A stretch of DNA of 64,000 bases, taken from a virus. The stretch covers positions 1-64,000 of the IMG/VR virus record IMGVR_UViG_3300050821_008688; one strand, written 5' to 3'. A program made the position numbers and the translations under genes. Under the pieces are notes generated by a model. It made no database searches and was not told the origin of the DNA. It was given only the letters and a program-made list of their open reading frames with translations. Positions 1,866 through 62,871 of this stretch are shown here, one piece after another (position 1 is the stretch's first letter; every line of letters starts with the position of its first letter).

Positions 1866-1882
1866 AGACTTTTTGTTCTATA
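1866..1882 (+). promoter_or_regulatory. putative late promoter motif, copy 1
   Basis: AGACT-TTTTG-TTCTATA; one of 11 copies with identical spacing. Confidence 0.7.
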
Positions 1883-1986
1883 AGTGTGGGAAACAATTTG
1901 ACCGAGGGACGGCGGGACAAGGCTTTCAAATAGTAGAGCCTATAAAACCAAAGAAATTCCGTCCAACATTTTCGAGGAGAAATAAA

Positions 1987-2148
1987 ATGATTATAGGAAT
2001 TCTTGTTGGAGTTGTAATTGCAGCGGTCGGGTACGCGATTTACAAGCATGTCGGGCTCGCCACGATTGAAGCGGACGTGAAGGCGGCTGTTTCTAATCCA
2101 ACGGCTACGCTCGCGACAATCAAAGCGGAACTTGCAAAATATCTGTAA
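1987..2148 (+). CDS. small single-TM membrane protein (possible lysis accessory)
   Basis: N-terminal hydrophobic helix, SD GAGGAG, directly after the endolysin. Confidence 0.6.
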   Translation: MIIGILVGVVIAAVGYAIYKHVGLATIEADVKAAVSNPTATLATIKAELAKYL

Positions 2149-2162
2149 AAGGGGAGGGGTCC

Positions 2163-2438
2163 ATGCTGGACCTTCTTCACAGATTTTACTGCATCTACTG
2201 CCGGATGTATCTCGGCGGCGAGGACGCAGAGAAGCTGACAGCCACGGTCAACTCGCACTTTCAGGCGAAGCATCCGCTGAATTATGATAACTGGAGCGCG
2301 AAGACCATCGCCTGTTCCATCCACTACGTGGCACCAGAAGCCCCTGAAACTGAAGTACGCTCAGAGTACACAGTTCCTAACGGAACGTCAAAGAAAAAAC
2401 TTGAAGAAGAGTACGACCGGAAGTGGCTCGGGAGTTGA
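2163..2438 (+). CDS. hypothetical protein (CxxC..H..H)
   Basis: ORF with SD GGAGG. Confidence 0.55.
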   Translation: MLDLLHRFYCIYCRMYLGGEDAEKLTATVNSHFQAKHPLNYDNWSAKTIACSIHYVAPEAPETEVRSEYTVPNGTSKKKLEEEYDRKWLGS

Positions 2439-2533
2439 AAGTCAAATGGTAACGATTCTCATTGTCGTGGGGTTCATTGTCATCGTTCTGGCAGGTATGA
2501 CGGTGGACTATCTTGTGTACGGAAGGAAAAATC

Positions 2534-2794
2534 GTGGCGACTTCCATCGAAATTGAACTAATTAAAGCGGGTACCGCGTTGGCGCGCAGCATCGGCCATG
2601 ACCCGCACAATAACGGTGGACCTGTACACGGATGTCCGAAGGCGTCGCCCATGATTCCGTGTACCTGTGGCGCAGGGCAGCAACAAGCAAAGGCGTTGGA
2701 CGACTGGCAGCATTTGATGGTGGATATTGAGGAAGCAGGGCCGGTAGATGTCCGAAATATGTCAAGTTTTTCGGACAATAAACTTGACACTTAG
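2534..2794 (+). CDS. hypothetical protein (H..C..CTCG motif)
   Basis: ORF with GTG start after AGGA. Confidence 0.5.
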   Translation: MATSIEIELIKAGTALARSIGHDPHNNGGPVHGCPKASPMIPCTCGAGQQQAKALDDWQHLMVDIEEAGPVDVRNMSSFSDNKLDT

Positions 2795-2861
2795 ACCTGC
2801 ACTTTGATATTCTGATTTTGGTATCAATGCACTATAGACATCGAAGCGGGGCAGGAGCAGT

Positions 2862-59758: not shown

Positions 59759-59769
59759 GGGAGAGTCAA

Positions 59770-60432
59770 ATGGGAATTCCACGTACAATCGGTGCTGTAG
59801 CTGTGGGGGCTTTGCCTCCTACTCCCGTGTATCATGGGCCGATTATTCCGGCTGTCAGTTTTTCAATTCTTAACGGTATCGCCACGATTGTGCTTAACGT
59901 GGCGGGGTTGACGCCGCCCGCTTTTCCAACGAACGGCTATAATGGGCCGAACGGTTACCCGCTCCCGCTAAACTTGGGGAATAACGGGCAGTTTGATATT
60001 CACGGCGGCATTAACGTCGCGAACGCGGGCAGCGGTGGTCCTGCGGGCGGGCAGCAAGTCACTCTGTGGGGTTTCACGACTGCGACATATTTCAATGGTA
60101 GAACCGTCACAGTTCTTGATTGTAACCCTGCATTAAATTCATTCCGATTTTATTTCAATAACGCGAACGTTGCGTCAACAGCGGATGCAGGCAATACCGC
60201 GACTTCGCCGTTCCAGCACTATCGTGTAGTTCGGCTTGAATGCAGTCAGACTCTCGGCACCGATATTATTTATGTCGGCGACTTGAACGTTTCCTCGACG
60301 CGATATTTTGCGGCGCTTTCTTTGGCGGGTCAGTTCTCAATTGAAGTGGCGAGCGAGAATATTCCTGCCGACCGAATCTGGATAACGGGCACGGGTCCAA
60401 CAGACTCAGTACAAGTGTCGTTGATTTATTAA
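59770..60432 (+). CDS. virion structural protein
   Basis: Shares a G.T..TY.NG..V module with the tail proteins. Confidence 0.65.
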   Translation: MGIPRTIGAVAVGALPPTPVYHGPIIPAVSFSILNGIATIVLNVAGLTPPAFPTNGYNGPNGYPLPLNLGNNGQFDIHGGINVANAGSGGPAGGQQVTLWGFTTATYFNGRTVTVLDCNPALNSFRFYFNNANVASTADAGNTATSPFQHYRVVRLECSQTLGTDIIYVGDLNVSSTRYFAALSLAGQFSIEVASENIPADRIWITGTGPTDSVQVSLIY

Positions 60433-60445
60433 TTGAGGAGAGTTC

Positions 60446-60919
60446 ATGGCGGTAATCGGCGGAACAGAGATTATAGAAACTCGGGGAAGCGGCGGCGCGC
60501 CTCTTAATTCTCCCGCGTTCACCGGAACACCAACCGCACCGACTGCGGCTCCGGGAACTAACACTACTCAAATTGCAACCACGGCCTTTGTCACGGCGGC
60601 AGTTTTAGTAGAAACGAATCGTGCGGAAGCAGCGGAAGCCGCACTTCCACAGCGAATCGCTAGCGGTACCGCCGCATTGGGAACAACCGCTATCCCGGCC
60701 AATACCGCAGAAGCCACGGTCACCGTTGCGGCTGCGGGAGTTCTTGCTACGGACTCTATTGAGTGGGCATTTAATGCTGCGCCGGGAACGGGATATGTTA
60801 CGGGTCTATATGTTTTAGCGTACGTTACCGCAGGCAATGTGAACTTCGTTGTTGTGAACCCGACTGCGGGGGCGCTAACACCTGCGGCGGCAACTTTGAA
60901 CTGGCGCGTAATCCGCTAA
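60446..60919 (+). CDS. short fibre protein with one PLxSPAFTGTPTAPT repeat
   Basis: Repeat shared with 10302-11453. Confidence 0.8.
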   Translation: MAVIGGTEIIETRGSGGAPLNSPAFTGTPTAPTAAPGTNTTQIATTAFVTAAVLVETNRAEAAEAALPQRIASGTAALGTTAIPANTAEATVTVAAAGVLATDSIEWAFNAAPGTGYVTGLYVLAYVTAGNVNFVVVNPTAGALTPAAATLNWRVIR

Positions 60920-60941
60920 AATTACTCGGGGGAGCAGCCTC

Positions 60942-62849
60942 GTGAATCGTAATCACCTTCAAGACTATATAAAATCTGTTGACCTGACAAATTTCCCTCG
61001 CGGGTTCATGACGTGGTTTAATCAGGCAAAAAAAGATACCCCAGAGAAAATTGAACAGTGGTATAAAGACCGCTACGAGTGTTTGTGTGACCCGATAGCT
61101 TTGGGCGGGTATGCTCCGGTAACACAGACAGACCCGGATGCGCCTGAAGAATGGGTACCAATTCTTGGAATGGACTTTCAAGAAAATCCACATAGGCTTC
61201 TGTTCAGCCAGTTTGTTCAGACGAAGCCGGGAGAGGGCGTTGTATTGTCTAACTTGGACACGACGGTCAAAAAGAGAATGATTCTATGGCAGCGCGGCGT
61301 ATTCAAAACCAGCGCAGTCCGCGTAGACATTGTTCAGAAAATTTTAAACTACCCCAACATTCGTATTTGCTTCCTCACGGGTGGCGACCAACTTGCCAAG
61401 CGGCAACTCGCGACAATCAAACAATTTTTTGAGAAGCCGACCCCGCGTTTCAAATTTCTCTTTCCCGAATTTTGTCTGAAGAGTGTACAGACTAAGAAAG
61501 CAATAGGTATAGATAGCGACGGCGAGCCCGTACGCGCGTGGGAAGACCGGCTCTGCAAAATGGGTACCGCCCACGAGTTCACGGTACCTGCGCGTACTAA
61601 TACGACGTTCCCGGAACCTACGTTTGCTATCTCCACGGCGAAATCAGTAAAGGCGGGCTCTCACTACGACATAATTTACATTGACGACCTTGTGAACGAG
61701 ACGAACTATCGTAGTGTGCCTGCACTAGAGAAATGCTATCAGGACTATATAGACATTTGCCCGCTGCTCACGGTGACGGGCTACATGATTTTGACGGGTA
61801 CTCGATATAGTTTTGGTGATACCTACGAGCGCATTCAGGAGTTAGCCAAACAAGAAGAGACGGAGACGGGTAAAACTATTTGGAAGTTTTCAATTCGAGA
61901 CTGCTGGAGTCTTGGTTGCGCGAACTGCTCGCACACGGATGTCTACCACGACAGAGGTATCAACATTCTTGAGCCTCCATGCACTGTGGAGGGTTGTAAG
62001 TGTATCGGATTTGCTCCGAATGGTGTGAAAGGGGTTTTATTTCCAGAAGCGATAACACATGATGGAAATCCAATTGGCGATACGGTAGAGTCGCTAGAAG
62101 CCAAACGCCGTGAATTGGGCGCTGAATTTTTTGCGAATCAGTACGAAAATAATCCAATTGCTTCGGGTACACAGACGTTCACTCAGGAGATAATTGACGT
62201 TCAAACGCTTCATCATCTCTCGCAGTTTCCGCAGCCTAATCAGTCTTTTGTTTTCGCGGTTGGTGACCTTGCGTACGTTGGAGAAGAGGGGCGAGATTTT
62301 TCGGTAATTTATCTGTGTCGCCTGTTTCAAGGACAAATTTTTGTTTATGACTGCATGTTCGGTAATTGGGACTCAGGCAAAGTGTCTGACATTACGATGG
62401 ATATTTTACTGAAACACCGGCCTAACATCATCTACTACGAAAAATTCAACGGGTGGGAGTCGTACAACAACAACATCACGGCGAAAGCGGCAGCGATGGG
62501 CATTCAGAAGGTGCCTATTGAGTGGGTAAAAATCTCGCACGTAAAGAACGCCAAGCTGATTCGCATCGGGTCCATCAAAGGTGTGCTTACAAACCACCGG
62601 CTCTGGTTGTATGCAGGGATGTTGGGGTTCGCTAAACTGGTTCAGCAACTTTTGAAATGGCCTAAACTCGGGCGTCACGACGATTTTGGAGACTGTTTGG
62701 GGCAGGTTGTAGCTGCGCCGACCGGCTATCAGCTTACCGTTCCGCCTACACAAGTGGCCGTATCAAACTGGTTGCGCAAACTCAATCAGGCAGCCCCCGT
62801 GGACGACTCATACACCGACAACGGCTGTGGAACTGGCATTATTTGTTGA
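60942..62849 (+). CDS. terL: terminase large subunit
   Basis: Walker A variant QRGVFKTS, Walker B IYIDD, motif TGTRY, QYENNP, nuclease GDLA and HDDFGD. Confidence 0.93.
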   Translation: MNRNHLQDYIKSVDLTNFPRGFMTWFNQAKKDTPEKIEQWYKDRYECLCDPIALGGYAPVTQTDPDAPEEWVPILGMDFQENPHRLLFSQFVQTKPGEGVVLSNLDTTVKKRMILWQRGVFKTSAVRVDIVQKILNYPNIRICFLTGGDQLAKRQLATIKQFFEKPTPRFKFLFPEFCLKSVQTKKAIGIDSDGEPVRAWEDRLCKMGTAHEFTVPARTNTTFPEPTFAISTAKSVKAGSHYDIIYIDDLVNETNYRSVPALEKCYQDYIDICPLLTVTGYMILTGTRYSFGDTYERIQELAKQEETETGKTIWKFSIRDCWSLGCANCSHTDVYHDRGINILEPPCTVEGCKCIGFAPNGVKGVLFPEAITHDGNPIGDTVESLEAKRRELGAEFFANQYENNPIASGTQTFTQEIIDVQTLHHLSQFPQPNQSFVFAVGDLAYVGEEGRDFSVIYLCRLFQGQIFVYDCMFGNWDSGKVSDITMDILLKHRPNIIYYEKFNGWESYNNNITAKAAAMGIQKVPIEWVKISHVKNAKLIRIGSIKGVLTNHRLWLYAGMLGFAKLVQQLLKWPKLGRHDDFGDCLGQVVAAPTGYQLTVPPTQVAVSNWLRKLNQAAPVDDSYTDNGCGTGIIC

Positions 62850-62854
62850 TTTTA

Positions 62855-62871
62855 AGACTTTTTGTTCTATA
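62855..62871 (+). promoter_or_regulatory. putative late promoter motif, copy 11
   Basis: AGACT-TTTTG-TTCTATA. Confidence 0.7.

Follow-up and report, generated by a model that had tools for sequence, protein, structure and literature searches.

A strand-specific bipartite element before the late genes of an uncultured soil phage, and a NusG-type protein as its candidate reader

The element and its genomic setting

The window analysed here comprises bases 1-64000 (64,000 nucleotides, nt) of the 99,668-bp IMG/VR record IMGVR_UViG_3300050821_008688, from an uncultured soil phage; the whole record was analysed, and it carries a 97-bp terminal repeat, an indication of a complete, circularly assembled genome. 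The subject of this work is a short bipartite element repeated at gene boundaries, described in a first-pass annotation as eleven copies of a late-promoter motif, AGACT-N5-WYCTATW. Ten exact matches to this pattern were found in the window, all on the + strand (shuffled sequences gave a mean of 0.02 and a maximum of 1), and the remaining copy, at 4901, begins with TGACT and departs from that consensus at its first base. Two further copies lie outside the window, 1.2 kb apart, at 65584 (before a scaffold-like gene) and at 66768 (before the major capsid gene), so that GACT-N5-WYCTAT occurs 13 times in the whole record, always on the + strand. The copies within the window are the following.

1866-1882 (+): copy 1, after the stop codon of the endolysin gene 1383-1865; followed by a 104-nt structured leader and then by gene 1987-2148
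4901-4917 (+): copy 2, the TGACT variant, 41 nt before the ATG of gene 4959-5459
5613-5629 (+): copy 3, 62 nt before gene 5692-6939
7371-7387 (+): copy 4, directly after the terminator hairpin 7330-7369 and 13 nt before gene 7401-8870
11716-11732 (+): copy 5, before gene 11761-17133, which encodes a protein of 1790 amino acids (aa)
17632-17648 (+): copy 6, before gene 17664-18092
28767-28783 (+): copy 7, the only one within the leftward gene block; a sigma70-type promoter facing leftward (28727-28756) adjoins it back to back
49591-49607 (+): copy 8, with a Shine-Dalgarno (SD) sequence, AGGAG, 3 nt after CTATA and the ATG of gene 49620-50078 12 nt after the copy
54354-54370 (+): copy 9, before gene 54387-54647 and the gene of a 593-aa protein
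58470-58486 (+): copy 10, before gene 58504-58746
62855-62871 (+): copy 11, between the terminase gene 60942-62849 and the portal-like gene that starts at 62885

When both strands of the record were scored with a weight matrix derived from the 13 copies (38 nt around each), the copies reached 31-41 bits and the next best sites on either strand 8.5-9.4, so that they form a discrete set. All 13 are located within the 8.8% of the genome free of open reading frames (ORFs) of at least 60 aa, and the GACT-to-CTAT spacing is constant throughout, in agreement with the strandedness, fixed spacing and gene-boundary positions originally reported. The length of the element had been underestimated: instead of 17 nt, the conserved block spans about 30 nt and consists of an AT-rich TTTAA, an invariant GACT, a pyrimidine-rich 7-nt spacer, CTAT(A/T), R-T/G-T-G and a purine stretch, giving the extended consensus TTTAA-GACT-N7-CYATAR-GTRRRG. 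Overlap with the upstream stop codon, said to occur often, holds for four or five of the 13 copies (1866, 11716, 54354 and 58470; at 49591 the stop lies 2 nt upstream).

For nine of the 13 copies, the next start codon lies 12-20 nt beyond the end of the copy and is provided with an SD sequence; the other four are followed by leaders of 28, 41, 62 and 104 nt. At 49591, 62855 and 7371 the SD starts only 3-9 nt after CTATA, and because it follows so closely, a transcription start serving the next gene would have to lie within about 0-3 nt of CTATA. The earlier prediction of a start 6-7 nt after CTATA conflicts with these SD positions, as a start 7 nt downstream would remove the SD at all three copies. 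The nameable genes downstream of the element encode the portal-like protein, the major capsid protein, the tail-fibre operon and the small membrane protein after the endolysin, which bears out its reported association with virion, packaging and lysis genes; the replication block contains no copy.

The motif recurs in related phages as well. Relatives were collected from IMG/VR as TerL (large terminase) homologues at 48-67% identity; 45 loci were examined, and four near-complete genomes (96-98 kb) were read whole. A related element was found in the gap between the TerL and portal genes in most of the 45 loci, and the four near-complete genomes carry 13-22 copies each, almost all on one strand, with two weak opposite-strand matches in G001. 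A matrix for the family consensus, GACT-N7-YYATAR-GTRRRG, gave 150 matches on the TerL (late) strand of the 45 loci and 0 on the opposite strand. No family-matrix match was detected in the six most distant of these loci, one of which is a 40-kb genome with direct terminal repeats that has neither the motif nor the 430-aa protein considered below. A copy precedes the capsid gene in five of five genomes, and copies precede the portal, scaffold-like, 1790-aa, 17664-type and 5692-type genes in three of five. The DNA boxes invariant across the family are GACT and ATA. When IMG/VR was scanned for the exact pattern, specified first at 17 and then at 14 bases, single chance matches were all that appeared outside the known relatives. 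The motif is thus a real, discrete, strand-specific element conserved across a phage family.

Few genes of the record could be named from family scans (Pfam/PHROG, about 60 of about 160 ORFs scanned). Those that could, together with other features of the locus, are listed below.

60942-62849: large terminase (TerL)
62885-65113: portal-like protein
66804-67799: major capsid protein
1383-1865: GH108-like endolysin
1987-2148: gene of a 53-aa membrane protein
1883-1986 (+): structured leader after copy 1, with nested helices, 1906-1912 pairing with 1959-1964, and then a short T run
5692-6939: ice-binding-like beta-solenoid protein
7330-7369 (+): strong intrinsic-terminator-like hairpin, a 15-bp stem and a T run that is continuous with the AT-rich upstream edge of copy 4
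7401-8870: first gene of the tail-fibre gene run
28802-29077 (+): small rightward ORF served by copy 7, 91 aa, GTG start
29067-30359 (-): candidate trans-acting factor, 430 aa
36227-36913 (-): short tyrosine-recombinase-family gene (228 aa) in the early region
51924-53513 (+): full-length GroEL-like chaperonin, within the head-gene block
minus strand: glycosyltransferase operon
75.8-96.8 kb: replication block, with a T5 A1-like protein, RecA, DNA polymerase, UvrD-type helicase and primase-helicase

A megablast search with 20 kb of the sequence, run over 50,697 phage records, revealed no close phage; among cultured phages the best TerL match is in Tunturiibacter phage Tunturi_3 (24% identity). 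The 1790-aa protein (11761-17133) is 67-71% identical among relatives, above the conservation of the terminase, and matched nothing in Pfam, PHROGs, PDB sequences or the protein atlas.

The leader that follows copy 1 is terminator-like, because its outer helix ends in a T run. A leader of about 100 nt is conserved in relatives (L066:857-965, L070:12821-12930, and in G003 after the site at 48416), and 6 of 13 pairs in its two nested helices show compensatory changes in three aligned sequences. Lying between the genes of the endolysin and the 53-aa membrane protein, it may act as a regulatory RNA in the timing of lysis.

A candidate factor and a separate early promoter class

The protein encoded at 29067-30359 had been put forward as a possible trans-acting factor, and its predicted architecture makes this plausible: a fold like sigma region 4, a second helix-turn-helix (HTH) domain and an NGN+KOW module. 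It is present in all near-complete relatives at 54-60% identity and has at least 130 homologues in metagenomes. A structure model built from 69 sequences reached a predicted local distance difference test (pLDDT) score of 87. In this model, residues 253-415 adopt the NGN+KOW fold of the NusG/RfaH/Spt5 type (VIA Z 9.1 to NusG and 7.8 to RfaH), and the C-terminal 175 aa match NusG/RfaH/Spt5 with a Foldseek E of 4e-5, probability 1.0 and VIA Z of 8-9. Residues 62-125 superpose on many sigma region 4 domains (Z 5.5-6.6, root-mean-square deviation 1.2-2.4 A over 57-65 aa), including region 4 of sigmaE bound to -35 DNA. Residues 126-232, folded alone (pLDDT 89), gave HTH DNA-binding matches only (LysR, LuxR/GerE, sigma4), with moderate Z values of 5-6.2. 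Within the N-terminal half, the invariant positions (Q104, W108, L111, R112 and E115; R178 and P183) are concentrated in the two predicted recognition helices, a modelled arrangement that matches the two invariant DNA boxes, GACT and ATA. Both the motif variants and these recognition helices are nearly invariant within the clade.

At the sequence level, searches with the 430-aa protein returned weak KOW and Phage_antitermQ signals only. The Pfam model Phage_antitermQ matched residues 74-122 weakly (E 0.067) and a stand-alone homologue of the N-terminal half, P0142, at 26.9 bits against a cut-off of 26, and the Pfam NusG model misses the protein. A profile search with the factor over 1.8 billion representative proteins revealed that its halves also exist separately, as proteins of about 250 aa that match positions 10-220 and as NGN+KOW proteins that match positions 236-419. 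A search for related loci with one stand-alone N-module homologue yielded nothing, no relative of the factor was found in 185,579 species genomes searched for a prophage, and no phage-encoded NusG paralogue with HTH domains was found in the literature searched.

Both halves are encoded as separate genes by Tunturi_5, a 308-kb cultured jumbo phage of an acidobacterial host. This phage was considered as a user of the motif and rejected, since its 2 matches are at chance level. Tunturi_5 (PP885688.1; e.g. 45399, 93156 and 219845) has a repeat of its own, an ATATT-like box with CCCTC-N5-7-GGGTATTAGC, whose CCCTC arm pairs with a downstream GAGGG and which occurs in about 20 copies upstream of genes on both strands. 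Because this is a different, hairpin-embedded repeat, Tunturi_5 provided no covariation test for the present motif.

Early or middle genes, among them replication genes and that of the 430-aa protein, are served by a separate class of promoters. Its members are of the sigma70 type, TTGACA-17-TAnnnT, often with a GTAC-N4-GTAC operator that overlaps the spacer and the -10 box (GTACTAT). The promoter of the factor gene and further members are the following.

30366-30394 (-): promoter of the factor gene, TTGACA-17-TACTAT, with GTAC-N4-GTAC in the spacer; the -10 box ends 6 nt before the ATG
1348-1376 (+) and 39104-39131 (+): further members in the window
75680, 76345 and 84809 (+), genome positions: further members

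The endolysin gene has such a promoter here (1348) and in the relatives G002 and G003, and another sigma70-type promoter is found at 46421, so that with 1348 one lies upstream of each of the two late blocks. Four of these promoters have a -10 box ending 6 nt upstream of the ATG, pointing to leaderless mRNAs.

The element and this promoter class come together around copy 7, which occupies a divergent control region; the -35 box of the leftward sigma70-type promoter is 11 nt away. No sigma70-like promoter on the + strand was found upstream of copy 7 in this window. The gene that follows the copy had been called a lone rightward holin-like gene; a rightward ORF does exist (28802-29077), and nothing supports the holin-like label. 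In four relatives a different small gene, for a Zn-ribbon protein of about 65 aa, takes its place. In eight of eight genomes (the window and seven relatives, L086-L092) a copy of the motif occupies a divergent control region within the opposite-strand block, is convergent with the factor gene and points through a small gene into its 3' end; in those genomes the copy sits 0.5-1.4 kb beyond the 3' end of the gene. Late transcription from the position of copy 7 would run antisense through the factor gene, and feedback or shut-off is possible.

Late promoter or loading site

The element was reported to differ from sigma70, sigma54 and T4 late promoters, and tests of geometry and boxes agree in all three cases. 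Instead of the -35/-10 spacing of sigma70 promoters, its boxes are 7 nt apart and no conserved element lies 16-18 bp upstream of CYATAR; when CYATAR is read as a -10 box in the TATAxx register, position 6, where such a box needs T, is occupied by G, T or A (mostly G in relatives, CATAAG), and no other register conserves this T. The consensus has neither the GG nor the GC box of the sigma54 pattern GG-N10-GC (-24/-12), and in place of the T4 late core TATAAATA it has a CYATAR core plus an extra GACT box.

A dedicated phage reader was searched for as well. Six-frame searches gave no Sigma70_r2 match at E<=1, with a positive control in 11 of 14 genomes, although a very divergent gp55 could escape such a search, and no match to the T7-type polymerase family PF00940, for which the control genomes gave no match either. 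Polymerase motifs B and C were found in the DNA polymerase alone, the catalytic motif of two-barrel polymerases was found nowhere in the genome, and the Pfam/PHROG scans of about 60 ORFs produced no polymerase or sigma candidate. Sigma70_r4_2 matched only the HTH of the A1-like protein. As possible hidden polymerases, the 953-aa protein was rejected, being DUF7178/GNAT, and the 1790-aa protein was examined and gave no lead.

The reading that we favour, and to which we grant somewhat less than an even chance, is that the motif is the late promoter of this phage family, with the host polymerase directed to it by the 430-aa protein; a hybrid mode, in which the factor takes part in initiation and then rides with the polymerase, is included. 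Of the earlier proposal of a phage-specific late promoter class, a late-gene element without known architecture stands firmly; that transcription initiates there and that the 430-aa protein reads the element we infer, and an antiterminator loading site remains a rival. The signal would be a duplex-DNA block of about 30 bp (AT-rich part, GACT, 7 nt, CYATAR and purine-rich part), with late transcripts beginning a few bases from CYATA, and host RNA polymerase would be brought to it by the 430-aa protein with no sigma factor. The two sigma4/Q-type HTH domains would fit the two DNA boxes, about one helical turn apart, the NGN domain may offer the same docking point on the beta' clamp helices as sigma region 2, and NGN+KOW would remain on the polymerase as a built-in processivity or antitermination factor. 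With the factor gene under a host-type (sigma70-like), operator-controlled promoter, an early-to-late cascade would result. In its strictest form, in which one protein replaces sigma, the HTH domains reading GACT and CYATA, NGN taking the seat of sigma region 2 and the factor never leaving the polymerase, we consider the proposal unlikely. If true, initiation factor and antiterminator would be the same molecule, and bacterial multisubunit polymerases could be directed to promoters by a third route, in addition to sigma-family factors and T4 gp55/gp33.

Several observations support initiation at the element. Its copies precede genes needed in most copies (scaffold-like and capsid), as promoters do, and polymerase would have to start at copy 7 because the window offers no sigma70-like promoter upstream on that strand. 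In two cases, copy 4 of the window (terminator 7330-7369) and the copy at 47201 in G001, a very strong terminator immediately precedes the element. Early and middle genes use a different promoter class, no phage sigma region 2, T7-type polymerase or two-barrel catalytic motif was found, and the motif and the protein are absent together from the 40-kb relative. The discreteness of the set of copies, its conservation across the family, the conservation and predicted folds of the 430-aa protein and the correspondence between its two recognition helices and the two invariant boxes count on the same side.

Weighing against this reading, both halves of the protein belong to elongation or antitermination families (NusG/RfaH and, weakly, Q) rather than to initiation factors, we know of no NusG-family protein that acts as a sigma, and DNA melting has no explanation in the promoter model. 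The link between protein and motif consists of co-occurrence and fold. Read-through polymerase would reach most copies, because a co-directional gene precedes them with no terminator between; terminators directly upstream occur at the background rate (2 of 63 sites), and a 5' hairpin right after the motif is a weak trend, seen at only a subset of sites (mean z -0.5 versus -0.12 in controls). Finally, the sole metatranscriptome that contains the phage exists only as contigs, one of which crosses the copy at 66768.

The main rival, which we consider somewhat unlikely and which that crossing contig would suit, is a promoter-independent loading site for a NusG/Q-type antiterminator, a sigma-independent counterpart of the lambda-type Q-binding element (QBE) with its pause element or of the ops site of RfaH. 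Polymerase would start at upstream sigma70-type promoters, pick up the factor on crossing a copy and leave termination-resistant, with the HTH domains holding GACT in the duplex behind the bubble and NGN engaging both CYATAR on the non-template strand and the clamp helices. The folds of the protein speak for such a role, NusG/RfaH NGN+KOW on the one hand and, on the other, an HTH part with a weak match to Phage_antitermQ, a model to which its stand-alone homologues respond as well. A precedent is given by Q, which loads at a bipartite DNA site made of the QBE and an adjacent pause element (10.1101/651190, PMC9388147). The element is also strictly oriented with transcription, like ops; sigma70-type promoters lie upstream of both late blocks (1348 and 46421); the order at copy 1 is promoter, site, terminator-like leader and late genes; and no phage sigma or polymerase was found that would explain initiation. 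The distribution of the copies argues in the opposite direction, since there are 13-22 per genome, some 1.2 kb apart, whereas known processive antiterminators need one site per operon; the lone copy in the opposite-strand block (eight of eight genomes) has no co-directional promoter upstream in the window, and the two copies just past strong terminators are out of reach of an unmodified polymerase. Moreover, terminator-like structures are not enriched downstream (4 of 63 sites versus 3.4% of random windows), and the copies show neither the ops consensus nor the embedded -35/-10 of Q-dependent promoters.

It is quite unlikely, in our view, that the element is a late promoter whose reader is a phage RNA polymerase that has escaped recognition or a small, very divergent sigma-like protein, with the 430-aa protein acting in elongation only or on other sites. 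Its geometry does resemble that of single-subunit polymerase promoters (a block of 25-30 bp abutting the start, with an AT-rich part, GACT, a TATA-like box and a purine-rich start), and the CATAAGTAGAG cores of the relatives recall organellar T7-type promoters. About two thirds of the roughly 160 ORFs, that of the 1790-aa protein included, were unscanned against family libraries or had no match, so that a reader might be hidden among them; against this stand the negative searches for PF00940 and Sigma70_r2, the restriction of motifs B and C to the DNA polymerase and the assignment of the 953-aa protein to DUF7178/GNAT. Roles at the RNA level and other roles at the DNA level share a slim chance between them. 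An RNA element on a polycistronic late mRNA, whether a processing site, a translational activator or repressor site or a start-associated sequence, would account for the strand specificity, for the position directly upstream of the SD at 9 of 13 copies and for the overlap of the purine-rich 3' part with the SD; it is very unlikely given that start codons follow at anything from 12 to 104 nt, that nothing evident upstream of the copy at 28767 could serve as a promoter for its transcription, that the preceding coding sequence or the T run of a terminator often extends into the AT-rich upstream part, and that the candidate reader has folds predicted to bind duplex DNA. A DNA site unrelated to initiation is the faintest of the prospects. 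Stoperators, one-way repressor sites, occur in Cluster A mycobacteriophages, and site-specific nicks in T5 or phiKMV-like phages; the asymmetric, one-stranded copies dispersed in short gaps would suit either, and a T5 A1-like gene and a small integrase-family gene are present. Nevertheless, the copies accompany late genes alone and are lacking in the replication and early blocks, the sigma70-type promoters carry an operator class of their own, GTAC-N4-GTAC, and single-strand nick sites would have no reason to sit only before start codons.

Transcripts from the field fit late expression. One public soil metatranscriptome holds the phage at 100% identity, as contigs with neither ends nor strand, which are deepest over the capsid gene (depth 5-7.6; genome 66317-68318, L084:17817-19818) and thin or absent elsewhere. 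This pattern is consistent with late-gene transcription in the field sample, which contigs cannot prove.

Late-gene switches of phages are classic models of reprogrammed polymerase specificity, and here an abundant clade of soil phages displays a sharp late signal outside the known promoter grammar, together with sigma/Q-type readers fused to NusG. Under either reading, a sigma-less promoter or a loading site, a cis element and a candidate factor are now defined and testable in vitro, and the motif provides a simple marker of late operons in genomes that are otherwise nearly unannotatable.

Comparison with known systems

Like T4 late promoters (TATAAATA; gp55, gp33 and the gp45 clamp), the copies are numerous, compact, AT-rich late signals without a -35 box. 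In T4, phage proteins redirect the host core polymerase through the clamp helices and the flap, and the 430-aa protein could offer both contacts in one chain. The differences concern a second invariant box, GACT, 7 nt upstream of the core, a core that abuts the transcript or SD instead of acting as a -10 box, and the candidate itself, a NusG-family protein with HTH domains, no gp55-like sigma-2 protein having been found here.

With T7-class promoters the element shares an asymmetric conserved block of 23-30 bp that contains an AT-rich part, GACT, (C)TATA and a purine-rich start and that here, to judge from SD placement, would likewise end at the transcript start, as well as a dozen or more copies before late genes, including the capsid gene. 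It differs in that no T7-type polymerase gene was found and in that the gap between GACT and TATA is 8 nt. In T7 promoters these two boxes are 3 nt apart.

The likeness to lambdoid Q and its QBE with a sigma-dependent pause element (PMC6606751, 10.1101/651190, PMC9388147) lies in a bipartite DNA site and in a late regulator that travels with polymerase, in addition to the weak Phage_antitermQ matches in the HTH part and the terminator-like leader after copy 1. Q has one site within one sigma70 promoter, whereas 13-22 sites occur here, none of them flanked by a -35/-10 pair and none with such boxes conserved around it, and the phage factor carries its own NGN+KOW, where Q relies on sigma and NusA.

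RfaH, UpxY, LoaP and ActX, with their ops-type sites, offer a NusG-fold factor and a short, strictly oriented element before long, horizontally mobile operons. Their defining trait of a NusG paralogue (NGN+KOW) encoded together with its target operons is also found in the 430-aa protein, which differs in having two extra HTH domains. The present sequence is unlike ops, it occurs in 13 copies, and copy 7 has no co-directional promoter upstream. The start-associated sequences of Cluster K mycobacteriophages and stoperators resemble the element as asymmetric, oriented repeats in gene gaps near start codons. The Cluster K repeats include the SD and stand a few nt from the start codon; here, the motif ends 12-104 nt before the start codon, with a separate SD at the long-leader copies, it accompanies late genes only, and the operators form a class of their own. 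Overall, the closest parallels in function are T4 late or T7-class promoters, or QBE and ops sites, and the element fails the defining tests of each.

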